Sequence record: MH051913
DNA from: Enterobacteria phage vB_EcoM_IME281
Strand: one strand, 5' to 3'
DNA length: 64,000 nucleotides
Below, in pieces: positions 1 through 9,184 of the stretch. Below the pieces are notes generated by a model. That model was given only the letters and a program-made list of their open reading frames with translations, had not been told where the DNA came from and made no database searches. Both the position numbers and the translations under genes were made by a program. Within the stretch, counting starts at the first letter, position 1, and each line of letters opens with the position of its first letter.

Positions 1-132
1 ATTTGCCATACAAACGCTTTGAATGCTCCAATCCGTAAGAGATATGCTTTAGAGATGGCTAATTATAATGAGTATGTAAATCAAACTAAACGTAATGACC
101 TTGAAATCTTTATTAAGGAATGTAAATCATGA
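1..132 (+). CDS. 3' end of an upstream hypothetical gene (partial)
   Basis: Open frame running in from the window edge, stop at 130-132, ATGA overlap with next gene. Confidence 0.4.
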   Translation: MCHTNALNAPIRKRYALEMANYNEYVNQTKRNDLEIFIKECKS

Positions 133-419
133 ATAAAATTGAAATTGAAATCCCAGAACACAACGACGAGAAATCTGCAGAAAAGGCTATCTATGCTCTT
201 CTGAATAAAGTGAATACCATCGAACATGAATGTGAAGCTATTGCCGATAAGTATGGTATCCAATTCGGTACCGGTGATTATGGTTCAGGCCGTACATATT
301 ATCCTGTCGGTTATGAATGCTCCCAGTGGTTTAAAGATGAAATTGAAAACAACGGCGGTGAAGTTGAAAATGGTGTCGTTACAGTTGGTGCTTGGGTCTC
401 CTCTTCGGCAATGTGCTAA
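129..419 (+). CDS. small acidic protein, tandem paralog family member 1 (C-terminal W-x-SSS-x-x-C)
   Basis: 96-aa ORF with AAGGA SD; shares ADKY core and C-terminal GAWVSSSAMC with four neighbours. Confidence 0.7.
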   Translation: MNKIEIEIPEHNDEKSAEKAIYALLNKVNTIEHECEAIADKYGIQFGTGDYGSGRTYYPVGYECSQWFKDEIENNGGEVENGVVTVGAWVSSSAMC

Positions 420-428
420 GGAAACGCT

Positions 429-710
429 ATGATGAATGATTACCGTAAAAATAAAGAGCTGGCTGAAGCAGTAAATGATATTCATAAAGCTATTCGTCGT
501 GCTGAGGAAATTGCAGACAAATATGAGACTCATTTTAATATATACCCTGCTCGCGGTATGGGCGGTGACTATTATTCTCCTGGCGCCCTGAAAGCCGACC
601 TTGCTCACTGGGAAGAATACGGTGAAGCTCAGTACGCTATTGTAAACCAACATGATTACACTACCAGCCTAGAAAATGGTGGATGGGTATCCTCTTCTTC
701 TGAATGTTAA
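429..710 (+). CDS. small acidic protein, tandem paralog family member 2
   Basis: 93-aa ORF; SD TAAGGAA overlaps upstream stop; C-terminus GGWVSSSSEC. Confidence 0.7.
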   Translation: MMNDYRKNKELAEAVNDIHKAIRRAEEIADKYETHFNIYPARGMGGDYYSPGALKADLAHWEEYGEAQYAIVNQHDYTTSLENGGWVSSSSEC

Positions 711-719
711 GGAATTATT

Positions 720-917
720 ATGTCTCGTGAACTAGATTGTGCAATCCGTACTGCCGCGGCGGCTATTGAAAACGTTATCCAGATTTGCAAAGAAGAACGT
801 GAAGAAGCTGATATCTATATCGATGGTCAACGTGACCTGGAACGTCATATCACGCTTTATAACGGTTGTATTACTATTAGTGGTACCTCTTGGGTGTCCT
901 CCTCTTACGAATGCTAA
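720..917 (+). CDS. small acidic protein, tandem paralog family member 3
   Basis: 65-aa ORF; SD overlaps upstream stop; C-terminus TSWVSSSYEC. Confidence 0.65.
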   Translation: MSRELDCAIRTAAAAIENVIQICKEEREEADIYIDGQRDLERHITLYNGCITISGTSWVSSSYEC

Positions 918-926
918 GGAAATAAA

Positions 927-1136
927 ATGACTATTGATGAAATTGAAAAACAAATCCGTGAATTAGTACGTAAAGGTCAGTCCGTGGCTGACGAAACAGG
1001 TCAGCACTTCCACGCCGGCGGCGAAGAATATATTCCAGCTTCTAGTCCGGAATATGGCGATTACGAATGGGCCCGTGATGATTACGGTATTCCTGAAGGT
1101 GAAGGTTTCTGGTTTAGCTCCTCTATGTCTTGCTAA
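927..1136 (+). CDS. small acidic protein, tandem paralog family member 4
   Basis: 69-aa ORF; SD overlaps upstream stop; C-terminus GFWFSSSMSC. Confidence 0.65.
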   Translation: MTIDEIEKQIRELVRKGQSVADETGQHFHAGGEEYIPASSPEYGDYEWARDDYGIPEGEGFWFSSSMSC

Positions 1137-1146
1137 GGTGATAAAA

Positions 1147-1371
1147 ATGACTGATATTAATGAATTAGAAAAAGCGGCACTTGAACTGGCTGCACTGTAT
1201 AAGAAAGTAAAAGATATGGCTTCTGCTCAGGATTTTGGTGTTGAGCTCGACGATTATGACGGTGAAGTTCGTCTCGAAGATTGGCTGAATAGTTCTTGTT
1301 ATGGTGAAGAAGCTGGTCGTACCTTCGTTGCTCGTGCCGATGGTAAAATCTGGTACCCAAGCTCATGCTAA
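1147..1371 (+). CDS. small acidic protein, tandem paralog family member 5 (degenerate C-terminal motif)
   Basis: ATG at 1147 after AAGGTG SD (track ORF starts earlier at 1054); C-terminus KIWYPSSC. Confidence 0.6.
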   Translation: MTDINELEKAALELAALYKKVKDMASAQDFGVELDDYDGEVRLEDWLNSSCYGEEAGRTFVARADGKIWYPSSC

Positions 1372-1592
1372 AATTGAAAAAACGATACATTCGTAAAATA
1401 AATGGTCTTCGCGATTATGCCAAAGGTTGGCCACTAAGTATTATTATGGCTGATAGACACCCACGTTATAATACTGAGATGACTTATTACAAAAAGTACG
1501 ATTCATATTGTCGGTCTAAAGCGGGTCGTTTAGATGGTTCTTATGAGGACTATTTTGGTAAAAAACCTACTCGTGTTTCGTTAGGAAAATAA
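1365..1592 (+). CDS. hypothetical basic protein
   Basis: 75-aa ORF, codon usage consistent with neighbours. Confidence 0.4.
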   Translation: MLKLKKRYIRKINGLRDYAKGWPLSIIMADRHPRYNTEMTYYKKYDSYCRSKAGRLDGSYEDYFGKKPTRVSLGK

Positions 1593-1622
1593 TTTAACCA
1601 CATGGATGTGATAGGAGGACTT

Positions 1623-1952
1623 ATGCATAAAGATTCAGTATTCAAATATCTTTTGAAAACAGATAAAGAATTCTATATGAATGGGCAAGCTTTCTTGTTC
1701 GTTCGTGGTAAACGTGAGATGTTTTACAAATGCGACCTCTCAATGCACCATCATATGTATCACACCCATGGCGAGCCTATACTGGGGTTCTCTGGTGACG
1801 AAACTAGACGTATAGCTATGTACTACGACCATTTTAAGCTCAATGATTGTGGTGACAACGCTTTGGTCTGGAATCCATCTTGGCGTCGTTGGGATACGGT
1901 AGACAACGATAAATTATTTTTAGAATATTGCAGAAGTGATGTACAGCTCTAA
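1623..1952 (+). CDS. hypothetical protein
   Basis: ORF; AGGAGG SD 6 nt upstream of internal ATG at 1623. Confidence 0.5.
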   Translation: MHKDSVFKYLLKTDKEFYMNGQAFLFVRGKREMFYKCDLSMHHHMYHTHGEPILGFSGDETRRIAMYYDHFKLNDCGDNALVWNPSWRRWDTVDNDKLFLEYCRSDVQL

Positions 1953-1995
1953 AAATACGTGTTACTATTACCCTACACAAACATGAGGAGAACAT

Positions 1996-2235
1996 ATGTG
2001 GTATTACGCTCCGATGTCCGATAAGTCTAATGAACCGGTACGCATTACTCGTGCCAAGTTTAAAAAGATTTATGGCTTTGCTTATAAGAAGTCTGATTAC
2101 GGTGTTCGTTTTGAAGATGCTCACTGTATCAATGATCCTTATGCAGAAGAAATCTCTAATGAGATAATTCCTATCGTTGAGAGTAATTCCAATGATATGT
2201 GGGAATTACATAATACTTACGTTGCCGAAATTTAA
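1996..2235 (+). CDS. hypothetical protein
   Basis: 79-aa ORF with GAGGAG SD. Confidence 0.55.
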   Translation: MWYYAPMSDKSNEPVRITRAKFKKIYGFAYKKSDYGVRFEDAHCINDPYAEEISNEIIPIVESNSNDMWELHNTYVAEI

Positions 2236-2254
2236 GTTTACTGAGGAAAATATT

Positions 2255-3214
2255 ATGATGCTAGTTATTGGTTCTCGTGCACTGCACCACGCAGGTCTGA
2301 TTGAAAATAAGTATATCGAAAATTCTGATTGGGATTTCATTGCCGACCAAGGCTCATGGAACCACTTTAAAGCTCGGATGTTCGGCGCCCATGTACACGT
2401 TGACAATCCTGATGTTCAGGCTTTCAAATGTATGCATAATGGTAAAGAAACCTATTTCGAAGCTTATATCGTCCGTGCCCTGACTAATGTACGAGAAATT
2501 ACCGGTGAGCTCCAAGATGAAGACTACACCTCAAGCTATCGTCTCCTGAAATATGCTGAAAATCATATTAAAAAGGACCGTCTTACAGGTTTCTATTGGG
2601 CGACGCCTGATATCTGTCTGGCTATCAAAACCTCTCATCGTTTCCTGAAGAATAATCCGTTCTTCTTGAAAACTATGTCCCACATCAAATACCTTCGTAA
2701 TAAAGGTATCACCCTGAATGAAGAACTCCGGGAAATTATGCTGCAACGTCAAAAAGAAACGTTGAGCTATTCCCATCCTAAATTGGATGTAAACAAATCA
2801 TCGTTCTTTAATGATACCATTTATACGCTAGACCATGACTCCATCCATGAAGCAGTAGCATTGGCAGGGCGTCCTGCATATACCTTTTATATGAAGGAAG
2901 GTTCTGAAGTCATGACCTCTCGTGAGAAGTTCGAGGCTTTGCCTGAAGCTATTAAATTGGCTGGTGTGTATGAAGAAACTTGTGTCCTGGCACTAGAACG
3001 TTCACAGGTTCCTAATGACTTCAATATTTCACCATCATTAAGTTTCTATATGGCTCTTGAGAAAGTGTGTACCTCAATCACTTCAGGTTGGTTCCGTGAG
3101 TACGCCTGGGAAAACTACCAAGCTGTGGTTAATATGTACAAGACTTTAGGTGAAAACGACTACATCAAACGATTCCAAGACAACCATCATTTAATTCGTC
3201 CTTTCGAAAAATAA
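2255..3214 (+). CDS. hypothetical protein (319 aa)
   Basis: Long ORF; TGAGGAAAATATTATG initiation context; weak GS...D-x-D motif, function not assignable. Confidence 0.7.
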   Translation: MMLVIGSRALHHAGLIENKYIENSDWDFIADQGSWNHFKARMFGAHVHVDNPDVQAFKCMHNGKETYFEAYIVRALTNVREITGELQDEDYTSSYRLLKYAENHIKKDRLTGFYWATPDICLAIKTSHRFLKNNPFFLKTMSHIKYLRNKGITLNEELREIMLQRQKETLSYSHPKLDVNKSSFFNDTIYTLDHDSIHEAVALAGRPAYTFYMKEGSEVMTSREKFEALPEAIKLAGVYEETCVLALERSQVPNDFNISPSLSFYMALEKVCTSITSGWFREYAWENYQAVVNMYKTLGENDYIKRFQDNHHLIRPFEK

Positions 3215-3226
3215 TTGCACAAAACA

Positions 3227-3264
3227 GTGTACAAGGTCTATAGGTGTGATACTATAGACCTATC
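3227..3264 (+). promoter_or_regulatory. early promoter cassette (sigma70-type, PeSL-like)
   Basis: GTGTAC-N17-TG-a-TACTAT then TAGACCTATCAA box; 9-bp inverted repeat AGGTCTATA/TATAGACCT. Confidence 0.6.
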
Positions 3265-3292
3265 AAAACAACAGAGTGAAATGGAGAATAAA

Positions 3293-3508
3293 ATGAAACT
3301 TTCTAACCAAGCAATCAACATGTTAAACGAAGTTCGTGCAGCTGGTGCTAAATGCCTGATGGTTAACACTCGTGACGGTGACCTTCGTCAAGCATTTGGT
3401 GAATTGAAATCTGCTGACCTGGTTAAATGTTCAGTTGGTATTGGTAACGCACTTCGTGTATCCTTATCCCCTAAAGGTAAAATGTACTTTTCAACAAAAA
3501 GTAAGTGA
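3293..3508 (+). CDS. hypothetical protein
   Basis: ORF downstream of early promoter cassette; GGAG SD lies inside the upstream ATG so second ATG preferred. Confidence 0.55.
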   Translation: MKLSNQAINMLNEVRAAGAKCLMVNTRDGDLRQAFGELKSADLVKCSVGIGNALRVSLSPKGKMYFSTKSK

Positions 3509-3518
3509 GGAAAATATT

Positions 3519-4208
3519 ATGAACGGCCCGAAAACTTTTAATTCTCAAGCTCGTGCAGTCGGTGGTTTTGCTCAAGATATCAGTAATGATATGATTAAAA
3601 ATGAGCCTATGTTCTTTAATTGTGATGCTTATTTTGCTCATAAACACGGCGGTCCTATTACTCGTAGCTTTATTGAAAACCTGCCTGAAGATTGGCAATG
3701 TGGCCCTGATATTGTATTTGATTCCCGTGTACACATGTTAATGCCTGGCTGGTACCCTGCAATTCCAGGCTTCCACCATGATGATGTACCACGCCCGGAT
3801 ATTCCGGTCGGTCAACACTTTATTACCGCAGGGCAACCTGATTATGATAATCCTCGTTACCATTCTGAACATATTCTTGGTCTTGTTAACGCTGATGTGT
3901 GTCCTACCCATTTTGCAACCGGAACTGCACAGTTCAGTCGGATTCCTGAAGGCGAACTTATCTATCGCCAGTGGCATAAAGAAGTTCTGGAAAAAATTGA
4001 GTCCAATGAATTAACCAAGTGGGATGCTCCTGACCGCACGTTACTCCAGTTTGATTGGCAGACATGGCATACAGGTTCTCGTGCAGTAAGTAATGGGTGG
4101 CGCTGGTTTGGTCGTGTGTCTCGTAATACAGACCGTGTTAAAAAGATTACAAATGAAATCCGCGTTAATGCTCAAGTATATCTGGAATTCCCTATGGAGG
4201 GCTGGTAA
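3519..4208 (+). CDS. hypothetical protein (229 aa), His/Asp-rich
   Basis: ORF with GAGGAAAATATTATG context; function unknown. Confidence 0.7.
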   Translation: MNGPKTFNSQARAVGGFAQDISNDMIKNEPMFFNCDAYFAHKHGGPITRSFIENLPEDWQCGPDIVFDSRVHMLMPGWYPAIPGFHHDDVPRPDIPVGQHFITAGQPDYDNPRYHSEHILGLVNADVCPTHFATGTAQFSRIPEGELIYRQWHKEVLEKIESNELTKWDAPDRTLLQFDWQTWHTGSRAVSNGWRWFGRVSRNTDRVKKITNEIRVNAQVYLEFPMEGW

Positions 4209-4795
4209 TGGCCCTTTATGAACCTGGTTGTATGGGTATTGATACAAACTTCATCCGTCGGTCGGAAAATGCTGGAATTATTATCCCAAGTGGTGAGACT
4301 ATGATTATTAAAAAGTCCTGGCGAAATATAGATGACGGTGATGAAGGAATTTCAGCCAGTACAATAGATTGGTCAGGTTGTACTGCCGAAATGAAACAGC
4401 TTTTAATTGAGGAATATAAAATGGGCTATATCGTAAACGGCTGGCAAGCGGAACCACATAAAGAACAGACTCCAGACCCATTGATTTGTTATAGCAAAAA
4501 ATACGGCTTCCGTGCATGGAGTGATGAATACGACAAATTGGTGAGTTCTAGATTCTATGTTTGGATGGGTATATTATTTTTCCCACTCCTAGGGTTTTTC
4601 CTGACAACAGATAATGACCTGCCTATTTGTGTATTCGCTTCAGCGATGTCTGCTGCTATCTTAGGTCTTATCGCATCATTTTTATGGACATCGGTTATCG
4701 AAGTACCTTTTCGTATTTCTAAAGTTAAAAAGGTATATGATGATATCACTAAGAAAAATACATTAAACTCTTTTATTAAGGAATGTCGTAAATGA
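4208..4795 (+). CDS. hypothetical membrane protein
   Basis: 195-aa ORF with C-terminal hydrophobic segments; ATGG overlap with upstream stop. Confidence 0.65.
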   Translation: MALYEPGCMGIDTNFIRRSENAGIIIPSGETMIIKKSWRNIDDGDEGISASTIDWSGCTAEMKQLLIEEYKMGYIVNGWQAEPHKEQTPDPLICYSKKYGFRAWSDEYDKLVSSRFYVWMGILFFPLLGFFLTTDNDLPICVFASAMSAAILGLIASFLWTSVIEVPFRISKVKKVYDDITKKNTLNSFIKECRK

Positions 4796-5028
4796 GCATT
4801 GCAATTTATATTAAATCTGAGTCATGTGATTCATATCTATATTCCTATGATACCGGAACATCAGAAGAGAAAATTAAAGAAGACTTAGAAAGCGATATGG
4901 ATATGTTCTGTCCTATTGGTGACTATATGCTTCAAGTGTCTGATAGTGAAAGTCCATCATCAGAAAATAGACTTCAAATTATTATGCAAGATATTTTTAA
5001 ACAATCATGGGAACGAGACGATGGGTAA
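4792..5028 (+). CDS. hypothetical acidic protein
   Basis: 78-aa ORF, overlaps nudE start. Confidence 0.45.
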   Translation: MSIAIYIKSESCDSYLYSYDTGTSEEKIKEDLESDMDMFCPIGDYMLQVSDSESPSSENRLQIIMQDIFKQSWERDDG

Positions 5029-5470
5029 GAAAGCTAAGGAATTATCGGCAGGTATTTTATTCATGACCGTTGATAAAGAACTGGTCATGGGCCGTGTAAC
5101 AGGCTCTCGTAATCCAGAGAACATGCGTCATAAATGGGACATTCCTAAAGGTCATGTCGAACCAGGCGAAGAGCCTATTCAAGCGGCAATGCGTGAAACC
5201 GAAGAAGAGATTGGATTCACAGCATACGATCCTGCATTCCTGAAAGACCTAGGTGAGTTCAAATATTCAAGCAATAAGAATCTACATCTGTTCTTATATA
5301 CAGTGCCTGTGGAACACGAGCAGTTCAAGGATTGCAAATGTACGGCTTACCATACGTTCCCTGATGGTCGTACTATTCCTGAATTCGATGCGTTCGCCTT
5401 GATTAAACGTCCGCAATGGGAATATGTCATGGGTAAGTCGATGTTTAAGGTTTTAGATTCGCTCTTTTGA
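5021..5470 (+). CDS. nudE: Nudix hydrolase
   Basis: Nudix box GHVEPGEEPIQAAMRETEEEIGF; sits immediately upstream of lysozyme as T4 nudE does; start at MGKKAK not track start 4916. Confidence 0.85.
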   Translation: MGKKAKELSAGILFMTVDKELVMGRVTGSRNPENMRHKWDIPKGHVEPGEEPIQAAMRETEEEIGFTAYDPAFLKDLGEFKYSSNKNLHLFLYTVPVEHEQFKDCKCTAYHTFPDGRTIPEFDAFALIKRPQWEYVMGKSMFKVLDSLF

Positions 5471-5478
5471 TATAAATA
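5471..5478 (+). promoter_or_regulatory. late promoter (gp55-dependent) for lysozyme
   Basis: Exact TATAAATA 22 nt upstream of e start codon. Confidence 0.75.
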
Positions 5479-5498
5479 CCTCCTATACTCAGGAGGTA
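5477..5498 (+). promoter_or_regulatory. SD-sequestering hairpin at lysozyme translation start
   Basis: TACCTCCT-atactc-AGGAGGTA; 3' arm is the SD. Confidence 0.7.
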
Positions 5499-5500
5499 TT

Positions 5501-5995
5501 ATGGATATTTTTGATATGTTACGTCAAGACGAAGGTCTTGATTTAAATCTTTATAAAGACACTGAAGGTTATTGGACTATTGGTATTGGCCAGTTAGTTA
5601 CCAAGAACCCATCTAAAGATGTTGCTCGTGCTGAACTTGATAAGCTTATGGGCCGAGTTTGTAATGGTCGTATTACTATGGCTGAAGCCGAACAACTCTT
5701 TAACCGATCGGTTGAAAATGCTCGTAGAGCTATTCTGCGTAATCCTAAATTGAAACCTGTTTACGATGTATTGGACGAAGTTCGTCGTTGTGCTTTAATT
5801 AACATGGTCTTCCAAATGGGTGAAGCAGGTGTAGCAGGGTTCACTAACTCTTTACGTATGCTCCAACAGAAACGTTGGAACGATGCGGCAGTTAACCTGG
5901 CTCAATCCCGTTGGTATAAACAAACCCCTAATCGTGCTAAGCGCGTGATTTCAACATTTAAAACAGGTACTTGGAAAGCATATGAAAACTTATAA
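5501..5995 (+). CDS. e: endolysin (T4 lysozyme)
   Basis: 164 aa, collinear with T4 lysozyme ([13 protein letters not shown]...[10 protein letters not shown]); late promoter and SD hairpin upstream. Confidence 0.97.
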
Positions 5996-8177: not shown

Positions 8178-8388
8178 ATTGACTATTGAAGGTTCTGAAG
8201 AAGTTCTGAAGATGTTTGTTGACTGGTTCCACGAGCAAGGCGAACAAGGCTTTATGGAATGTTGGGGCGGCGGCCAATGGAATGGTAAAGAAATTGTTTA
8301 CCCGACCACGTATATCTCTGTTAGTGGTGGATATGATGGCCTTCGTTTTGTAGAATATGATATTGCATCTGATGAGGAAGTAAAATGA
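8170..8388 (+). CDS. hypothetical protein
   Basis: 72-aa ORF, overlapping coupled start. Confidence 0.5.
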   Translation: MSKLTIEGSEEVLKMFVDWFHEQGEQGFMECWGGGQWNGKEIVYPTTYISVSGGYDGLRFVEYDIASDEEVK

Positions 8389-8663
8389 TTGAAGATATCA
8401 AAGGTTACAAGCCGCATACCGACGATAAAATCGGTAAAGTGAATGCCATTAAAGATGCTGAAGTTCGATTAGGCTTAATCTTTAAAGCATTAGAAGAAGA
8501 ATACGTTGAAGCCTTTACATGCTCAGGTGTCGATAAAATGAGTGATGAAGAATTCGACCTCACTCATGAACGTCTCGCCCAGATTCGTACGGCAATCGAA
8601 CGCTTGAAAGAAGCATCCATGTGGGCCTGTCGTTCCGTTTTCCAACCTGAAGAAAAATACTAA
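8385..8663 (+). CDS. hypothetical protein
   Basis: 92-aa ORF, ATGA overlap. Confidence 0.5.
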   Translation: MIEDIKGYKPHTDDKIGKVNAIKDAEVRLGLIFKALEEEYVEAFTCSGVDKMSDEEFDLTHERLAQIRTAIERLKEASMWACRSVFQPEEKY

Positions 8664-8725: not shown

Positions 8726-9184
8726 ATGTCAGAAATTAATTCAGAAGTATTCATCCGCCGCAACAAATTACGTCGTCAGTTCGAAACCGAATTTCGTGAA
8801 CTTAACGCGTCCATCAAAAAAGCCGCCATTAAGAGCGGTGTCCCAGCTTTCTTTATTAAGTACTCTAATCACTTGTTGGACCGTGCTATCCAACGTGAAA
8901 TTGACGAAAAATATGTTTTCTCTTTGTTCAAGAAGCTCCATAACCATGTTAAAGAAATCCATGAATTTTTAATCCAGGAGCCTCTTCCTGACATAGAATC
9001 TGAAATTGTCCCAGGTAAAGTGTATCGTCCACTGCGTCTCGAGATTACTGATAAAACCTTATGGTTGGGTATGACCGTAGATCGTAAACATCCTGATAAA
9101 GGATATTCATTAAAATGTCGTATGGCATTTGTTAACTCTAAACGTTTAGAAGGTAAAACCAGCACGAAAGTAATCTATCTTTAA
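8726..9184 (+). CDS. regB: RegB endoribonuclease (cleaves GGAG in early mRNAs)
   Basis: 152 aa collinear with T4 RegB (EVFIRRNKLRR...HLLDRAIQREIDE...RLEITD); early promoter cassette upstream. Confidence 0.9.
   Translation: MSEINSEVFIRRNKLRRQFETEFRELNASIKKAAIKSGVPAFFIKYSNHLLDRAIQREIDEKYVFSLFKKLHNHVKEIHEFLIQEPLPDIESEIVPGKVYRPLRLEITDKTLWLGMTVDRKHPDKGYSLKCRMAFVNSKRLEGKTSTKVIYL

Follow-up and report, generated by a model that had tools for sequence, protein, structure and literature searches.

Results

Five related small genes lie in tandem upstream of a nucleotidyltransferase gene

The stretch of DNA analysed here (the window) comprises 64,000 nucleotides of Enterobacteria phage vB_EcoM_IME281 (sequence record MH051913) and carries near its start, on the plus strand, five consecutive open reading frames (ORFs) for small acidic proteins with a Cys-containing C-terminal tail (Table 1). 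These proteins belong to a family in which this tail is nearly invariant, and members of the family are encoded beside a nucleotidyltransferase (NTase) with a Pol-beta fold in phage groups that share no other synteny. Over bases 1-2400, sequence identity is 97-98% with Salmonella phage SHP1 and Escherichia phage C6 and 92% with phage JS98, which assigns the window to a Dhakavirus, i.e. a T4-like phage of the Straboviridae. In JS98, in which all five array genes are present, the counterpart region is flanked by a tRNA cluster with e.6/e.8 and by nudE with the lysozyme gene e, while the unrelated genes e.2-e.5 occupy the corresponding position in T4. In the JS98 RefSeq record (NC_010105), the orthologue of paralogue 4 (8927-9136) is unannotated, which leaves an apparent gap of 230 nt.

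The initial annotation had described the five ORFs as related, small and acidic, and all five are indeed present, with C-termini identical to those it listed. The isoelectric points (pI) of the proteins are 4.27-4.91 with net charges of -6 to -10, and the genes are separated by 9-10 nt. The paralogy is uneven, and pairwise identity among the five is merely 27-33%. Paralogues 1, 2 and 4 are robust members of the family (E = 1e-27 to 1e-21 against a family hidden Markov model (HMM) built mostly from distant relatives) and match phrog_899, as does paralogue 5 (E = 1e-23 to 6e-10 for the four). Paralogue 3 is split off by PHROG into phrog_4882, and its match to the family HMM is confined to the N-terminal helix and the tail; by its sequence, it looks like a deletion derivative without the Gly/Tyr hairpin described below. 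Both PHROG clusters are of "unknown function" and record neither the tail nor a linkage to an NTase. The motif W-x-[S/A/P]-S-S-x-x-C fits the tails of paralogues 1-4 exactly, while paralogue 5 has the shortened form W-x-x-S-S-C twice. The ORF listing extends paralogue 5 to an upstream ATG at 1054; the ATG preceded by a Shine-Dalgarno (SD) sequence is at 1147. As the initial annotation described, the stop codon is part of TAAGGAA at junctions 1-2, 2-3 and 3-4, with the ATG of the next gene 5-6 nt on; at junction 4-5, it lies within TAAGGTGA. Across the four junctions, the distance to the next ATG is 5-7 nt.

The individual paralogue types recur in other phages. Type 1 is found from Dhakavirus to Aeromonas and rV5-like phages, orthologues of paralogue 3 are present in Mosigvirus and Marfavirus arrays, and a double-motif protein resembling paralogue 5 is encoded in a Phapecoctavirus array (locus L022, 3353-3631), so that type 5 is shared by Dhakavirus and Phapecoctavirus. 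Because the types are conserved across phage genera, the copies are probably old and not redundant, and the sequences indicate that their diversification is not recent.

The C-terminal tail is conserved at the protein level

When the representatives of 1.84 billion clusters (50% identity) were scanned in full with HMMER (cut-off E <= 1e-3), 242 of them proved to belong to the family, almost all 70-120 amino acids (aa) long and aligned through their final residue; a word-indexed protein search gave 33 matches, all close relatives. Two long scan matches (P0076, 1446 aa; P0135, 769 aa) were not recognised by the rebuilt family HMM, and we discarded them as spurious. Tail statistics were obtained for 147 inspected representatives. 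The Cys is exactly C-terminal in 136 and penultimate in nine; among the 136, a Trp lies seven residues ahead of the Cys in 133 and Ser-Ser occupies positions -4/-3 in 134, and the complete motif W-x-[S/A/P]-S-S-x-x-C fits 133. In 75 representatives, the tail Cys is the only one, and the median pI is 4.46.

The array has a layout that could by itself generate similar C-termini, because TGY-TAA-GG(A/T) is common to four junctions in the window and in close relatives. The tail might then be a nucleotide-level by-product of the overlap between stop codon and SD sequence combined with recent tandem duplication, an outcome that the initial annotation had named as one that would undo its proposal. 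We surveyed the tail codons of 35 genes of the family, drawn from 21 loci. Ser is encoded at its three positions by TCT, TCC, TCA, TCG, AGT and AGC, the Cys is encoded by TGC in 22 genes and by TGT in 13, the stop codons are TAA (26), TGA (6) and TAG (3), and the sequences downstream are unrelated. As all six Ser codons, both Cys codons and all three stop codons occur, the tail is a feature of the protein. Moreover, the 133 of 136 representatives that carry the motif are mutually less than 50% identical, and the window paralogues themselves share only 27-33% identity. On the codon evidence and the retention of the motif among such distant representatives, we reject the artefact, to which we leave practically no chance; the conservation of a Cys-ending tail far exceeds what chance would give.

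Three observations concern proteins that depart from this pattern. In an 87-kb phage contig (L014), one member of a four-gene array (8295-8534) is of the GDYGYGRTYYP type and ends in ...RWYPK without the Ser-Ser-Cys tail, and the tail can therefore be lost. The paralogue 1 orthologue of phage RB69, ORF139c (P0035; BFVD Q7Y506), is recorded with 71 aa and stops ahead of the tail, owing either to truncation or frameshifting in RB69 itself or to a problem of annotation or sequencing. Finally, a different small protein with the stretch ...TYTPASMWEASG(S/G)CEWEESAQYG.DYGW is encoded in or beside the arrays of two unrelated phage contigs (L020, 574-912; L023, 3232-3666) and could represent either a degenerate relative or an additional component of the module.

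The small proteins are predicted to fold and match no characterised family

The family consensus has four parts: a long N-terminal helix that ends in (I/V)AD(E/K)xG-x-F, with the consensus (A)E-x-IAD-E-x-G-(V/L)-x-F; a hairpin rich in Gly and Tyr (YGMGGTYYP or GDYGSGRTYYP); an acidic linker of variable sequence, rich in Asp, Glu, Trp and Ser; and the nearly invariant C-terminal G-x-W-(V/I)-S-S-S-x-x-C. In some members, a W-(E/D)-S-S-x-E-G unit is repeated ahead of the tail. The most conserved parts are common to all paralogues and the linker alone varies. The AlphaFold2 (AF2) model has an N-terminal helix of 29 residues; the W-V-S of the tail lies in a beta-strand, and the last residues form a short helix packed on the domain with a predicted local distance difference test (pLDDT) score of about 72.

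The initial annotation did not recognise the family, and profile and structure searches bear this out, as they return no characterised family. The five proteins gave nothing significant against Pfam, NCBIfam and PADLOC, and a PDB sequence profile search gave no match. Across 185,579 species genomes of bacteria and archaea, the small-protein motif had 0 matches, and the family is so far confined to phage or phage-like sequences. In T4, neither a family member nor the NTase described below was found in the regions e-to-tRNA, nrdC and mobD.

Several precursor-like paralogues upstream of an enzyme gene, with a terminal Cys three residues past a conserved Ser, also call to mind ribosomally synthesised and post-translationally modified peptides (RiPPs) or carrier proteins. 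S-x-x-C-COOH resembles the lanthionine and aminovinylcysteine (AviCys) ring pattern, and the tails of LysW-type carriers are similar as well. In such a scheme, the tail would be a core peptide processed by Ser dehydration and Cys addition, or the carboxylate of the terminal Cys would be activated. However, neither the scanned window proteins between 129 and 5995 (array through lysozyme gene) nor the Pfam matches listed for the called genes of the metagenomic loci include a dehydratase, cyclase, flavin decarboxylase, radical-SAM or ATP-grasp domain. In addition, the predicted fold of the proteins includes the tail, and the Ser-to-Cys spacing differs in paralogue 5 (WYPSSC) and in WYSSSMQNC. We have rejected the lanthipeptide/AviCys idea on the missing enzymes and the predicted folding of the tail, and consider the scheme as a whole very improbable.

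The NTase next to the array has a Pol-beta fold

An NTase of 319 aa is encoded 0.9 kb downstream of the array; the initial annotation did not mention this gene, which is the most informative feature of the region. In a Pfam scan of this protein and 43 homologues, DUF7275 and DUF7277 were the only matches. G6-S7, D25-x-D27 and E69 are invariant among the homologues and constitute the Pol-beta nucleotidyltransferase signature; with G-S...D-x-D, a third acidic residue and an alpha/beta fold, the window protein belongs to the Pol-beta NTase superfamily. Its closest structure is MenT1; the tRNA-modifying MenT toxins are nearest, and ANT(2'') and LnuA are among the closest. Neither the window NTase nor its homologues match DUF1814/AbiEii or PF10127 (RlaP) by sequence. 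The NTase is found in 732 of 50,697 phage records and in more than 2,000 protein clusters, and literature searches returned no paper on DUF7275, DUF7277 or the PHROG identifiers.

Small proteins and NTase are linked across unrelated phage groups

We examined the linkage from both sides. Starting from the small proteins, an NTase gene follows the array at a distance of up to about 1.5 kb in six phage genera, namely Dhakavirus, Mosigvirus, Karamvirus, Marfavirus, Tulanevirus and Ceceduovirus; in the two Aeromonas phages the pair is found at a different genomic place. In metagenomic contigs with distant members (L008, E = 4e-55; L019; L021), the NTase is the very next gene, following four tandem paralogues in L019 and two in L021, and in L014 it lies a few genes downstream. 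In 10 of 13 IMG/VR loci, all of which were retrieved via a degenerate YGMGGTYYP DNA pattern, the NTase is downstream on the same strand, and the remaining three loci are cut off exactly there. The NTase of L046 was recognised only by eye, from an N-terminal fragment of 53 residues that had no HMM match. Starting from the NTase, family members adjoin it in Phapecoctavirus, Otagovirus, Hadassahvirus and Menderavirus phages. The phages concerned are Phapecoctavirus SKA64 with three members (one with a double motif like paralogue 5), Otagovirus phiPsa397 with four or five, Acinetobacter phage Morttis and Stenotrophomonas phage IME-SM1. The same holds for four of four contigs from metagenome-assembled genomes (MAGs); because these contigs carry the same gene combination, the matches to the NTase motif among the 185,579 species genomes are probably phage contigs. 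In one subclade, and there alone, the neighbour is a true RlaP: the genes for members P0047 and P0060 each overlap an RlaP (PF10127) gene located directly upstream. Thus, an adjacent DUF7277/DUF7275 or RlaP NTase is found in nearly all informative loci, with one to five diverged small-protein copies per locus and NTase.

Genes for RNA repair recur in these neighbourhoods. PNKP is encoded in L014, a polynucleotide kinase (PNK)-phosphatase in L022 and rnlA in Aeromonas phage CC2, and tRNA clusters are present in the T4-like phages; no PNK, RNA ligase or tRNA gene was found among what was scanned of window positions 129-5995.

These data bear on the view, a generic expectation put forward in the initial annotation, that the small proteins are early host-takeover or anti-defence factors. 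As free-standing inhibitors, for instance nucleic-acid mimics that block host nucleases, they would contact a host target through the tail, and the NTase would be a mere neighbour. Their strong acidity, their occurrence in arrays of diverged copies, their restriction to phage and phage-like sequences, their position in T4-like genomes, in the accessory region from e to the tRNA genes, and the existence of distant NTase homologues without small proteins all fit this view. Also, like Ocr, ArdA and Arn, they are small, strongly acidic and phage-encoded in accessory regions. However, they have no sequence or fold similarity to these proteins or to any known anti-defence or DNA-mimic family, and proteins of the Ocr/ArdA/Arn type are not known to end in a conserved Cys motif or to have an enzyme as their obligate neighbour. 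That the most conserved parts are those common to all paralogues, with variation in the linker alone, also speaks against this view. The near-universal, same-strand and usually abutting NTase would not be expected for independent inhibitors, because this adjacency persists across phage groups without other shared synteny. We therefore regard free-standing inhibitors as unlikely; the data favour a module that includes an NTase of the RNA-end type.

Genes surrounding the array and the NTase

Window positions 1-4300 contain no site that resembles a sigma-70 promoter or a terminator and no T4 late promoter. With no such site separating them, array and NTase are probably co-transcribed from upstream. 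The proteins of the three ORFs in between match phrog_7065, phrog_9796 and phrog_3723, all listed with unknown function. The first of them (1365-1592) encodes a very basic protein of 75 aa (pI 10.0, net charge +11.6) and starts 7 nt ahead of the stop codon of the acidic paralogue 5, which gives paralogue 5 a neighbour of opposite charge.

Downstream of the NTase, the protein matching phrog_1843 has homologues beside the NTase in JS98, NBG1, Potts1 and CC2; it is encoded repeatedly on the downstream side of this gene (JS98, Mosigvirus, Marfavirus, CC2) and is missing from most other loci. It may be a third component of the module in some lineages.

Directly upstream of the array, positions 19-132 (plus strand) encode the C-terminal part of a membrane protein similar to e.3, which ends in ...LEIFIKECKS. 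T4 e.3 and e.4 and their Mosigvirus counterparts have a similar terminal F(I/V)KE(C/S)R(C)K and thus represent another family of small proteins whose C-terminus is conserved and contains Cys.

Table 1. Features of the array and the NTase region in the window
Feature	Position	Strand	Properties
Paralogue 1	129..419	+	96 aa; GDYGSGRTYYP type; phrog_899, E = 1.4e-23; family HMM, E = 1.3e-27; AF2 pLDDT 90.2
Paralogue 1 tail WVSSSAMC	393-416	+	Full C-terminus GAWVSSSAMC
Stop/SD junction TAAGGAAACGCT before ATG 429	417..428	+	Read directly from the window sequence
Paralogue 2	429..710	+	93 aa; GMGGDYYSP type; phrog_899, E = 5.5e-21; family HMM, E = 6.5e-27
Paralogue 2 tail WVSSSSEC	684-707	+	Full C-terminus GGWVSSSSEC
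Paralogue 3	720..917	+	65 aa, short; phrog_4882, E = 1e-36; family HMM, two-part weak match, E = 5.5e-5
Paralogue 3 tail WVSSSYEC	891-914	+	Full C-terminus TSWVSSSYEC
Paralogue 4	927..1136	+	69 aa; GGEEYIP type; phrog_899, E = 1.9e-12; family HMM, E = 1.5e-21
Paralogue 4 tail WFSSSMSC	1110-1133	+	Full C-terminus GFWFSSSMSC
Equivalent stop/SD junctions	708-719, 915-926, 1134-1146	+	1134-1146 reads TAAGGTGA
Paralogue 5	1147..1371	+	74 aa; divergent, double motif; phrog_899, E = 6.4e-10; not significant against family HMM
Paralogue 5 internal motif WLNSSC	1282-1299	+	
Paralogue 5 terminal motif WYPSSC	1351-1368	+	C-terminus KIWYPSSC
Intervening small ORF, not a family member	1365-1592	+	phrog_7065; no family HMM match
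Intervening small ORF, not a family member	1623-1952	+	phrog_9796; no family HMM match
Intervening small ORF, not a family member	1996-2235	+	phrog_3723; no family HMM match
Pol-beta-fold NTase	2255..3214	+	319 aa; N-terminal DUF7277 NTase domain and DUF7275 helical domain
Protein of unknown function	3519..4208	+	229 aa; phrog_1843; no Pfam match; HHDD-containing stretch

Discussion

Based on the linkage reported here, we suggest that the small family and the NTase probably form a two-part module that functions in RNA repair or counter-defence. The guilt by association with an NTase of the RNA-end type is strong because the linkage spans phage groups without shared synteny and survives a swap of the NTase family. 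The initial annotation had proposed that the tail implies a shared partner; this idea gains support, and the neighbouring NTase is now a candidate for that partner. We tentatively favour, at somewhat less than an even chance, that the small proteins are non-covalent partners of the neighbouring NTase, acting as its regulators, neutralisers or specificity factors.

In this model, the module would consist of an accessory half, the small proteins, and an enzymatic half, the Pol-beta-fold NTase, with RlaP taking the latter place in one subclade. We infer that each small protein would bind the NTase via its conserved face and the tail. It might hold the NTase inactive, as the small antitoxins of MenT-type NTases do; alternatively, it might set which RNA 3' end or which nucleotide the NTase uses. 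Several paralogues retained over long times could provide one enzyme with alternative partners, and their roles would be non-redundant, given the conservation of paralogue types across genera. The module would probably serve the repair or remodelling of tRNA or other RNA ends during infection and, thus, counter-defence against host systems that cut RNA.

The model has precedents in two groups of systems. In MenAT and AbiE, as in the loci described here, a Pol-beta-fold NTase is encoded beside, and usually just after, the gene for a small cognate protein. MenT toxins add nucleotides to tRNA 3' ends, and the small antitoxin MenA1 binds and acts via one long alpha-helix and triggers MenT auto-phosphorylation (PMC11375011); the 29-residue N-terminal helix of the small proteins invites comparison with this helix. 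By contrast, the window NTase lies outside DUF1814/AbiEii by sequence and is similar at the level of the fold, the small proteins resemble neither MenA nor AbiEi in sequence or fold, each NTase has one to five of them, the invariant W-x-S-S-S-x-x-C has no counterpart in MenAT or AbiE, and the module is found in lytic phages and not in cellular defence loci, with no match in PADLOC. RlaP, which includes T4 NrdC.11, adds one or two nucleoside monophosphates (NMPs) to RNA 3'-OH ends and has been proposed to restore nucleotides removed by "smart" ribotoxins (bioRxiv 10.64898/2025.12.29.696909; see also PMC7824862). RlaP, too, combines an N-terminal NTase domain with a C-terminal helical domain (bioRxiv 10.64898/2025.12.29.696909), several of the loci described here share with it neighbourhoods containing PNK, RNA ligase or tRNA genes, and one small-protein subclade is directly beside a true RlaP. 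However, the window NTase has no PF10127 match, the searched T4 regions lack the small family, and no small protein partner of RlaP is described in bioRxiv 10.64898/2025.12.29.696909 or PMC7824862. The module may prove to be a variation on the theme of an NTase with a small regulator.

Several observations weigh against the small proteins being non-covalent partners of the NTase. In the window, three unrelated small ORFs (1365..2235) separate the array from the NTase. No NTase was seen in contigs L012 (3 kb) and L020 (1.2 kb), or in L044 (931 nt), which is cut upstream and has downstream genes in common with the RlaP-linked L045. Conversely, no tail protein was found within 3.5 kb of the NTase in Streptomyces phage BillNye, Gordonia phage PhinkBoden and roseophage DSS3_PM1 (L047, L048, L049); these NTases are the most distant homologues (25-30% identity), and because they lack tail proteins, the NTase fold as such needs no small partner. 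As there is no sequence-level match, the analogies to MenT and RlaP are analogies of fold and context. Up to five partners per enzyme is unusual for an arrangement of the toxin-antitoxin type. Lastly, a chemical role, as acceptor or nucleophile, would fit the invariant Ser-Ser and terminal Cys at least as well as docking would. The genes next to the three distant NTases are of interest in their own right: a polynucleotide kinase (L047), a tRNA cluster (L048), and RNA ligase 2 with a metallophosphoesterase (L049). Because of these neighbours, a role in RNA repair is supported for the NTase family.

A chemical role of the tail is central to a different explanation, in which the NTase transfers an NMP to one of the invariant Ser residues of the small proteins, to a Tyr in their YYP loop or to their terminal Cys, and the putative nucleotidylylated proteins act as decoys, sponges, primers or switches. 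The same gene linkage supports it, the invariant residues have hydroxyl or thiol side chains (Ser-Ser in 134 of 136 and terminal Cys in 136 of 147 representatives), and the closest structures include ANT(2'') and LnuA, which nucleotidylylate hydroxyls of non-RNA substrates. AMPylation of a Tyr in a protein is carried out by the minimal NTases of HEPN-MNT systems. NTases of the MenT family can phosphorylate their own Ser/Thr (PMC11375011). However, the AF2 model places the tail in a strand and a packed short helix (pLDDT about 72), i.e. not in a free and flexible segment. Also, RlaP, the substitute NTase in one subclade, labelled RNA alone among E. coli macromolecules (bioRxiv 10.64898/2025.12.29.696909). 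We give limited credence to the small proteins as substrates. We also considered, and find decidedly doubtful, that they represent a new class of protein cofactors for template-independent RNA-end repair, with the loop and tail entering the NTase cleft as acceptor, primer or "template". If this were true, the "template" paralogue would dictate which nucleotide is restored on which damaged tRNA, and four to five paralogues would let a phage repair several lesions with one enzyme.

No paper, Pfam entry or searchable catalogue of defence or anti-defence systems describes the small family, its tail or the linkage to the NTase. The family and the two-part module look new because every test of membership in a known system failed. 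If the linkage reflects function, they would constitute a widespread, previously undescribed two-component phage module. With its place in RNA-repair neighbourhoods, this module would be relevant to the phage response against defences that cut tRNA, for example PrrC, RloC, PARIS and retron nucleases, and also to how template-independent NTases gain specificity or are restrained. DUF7275 and DUF7277 would gain a testable partner with a sharp, mutable motif, i.e. the Trp, the Ser-Ser and the terminal Cys. Finally, the module would account for a block of "hypothetical" genes in many T4-like and rV5-like phages that are candidates for therapy.

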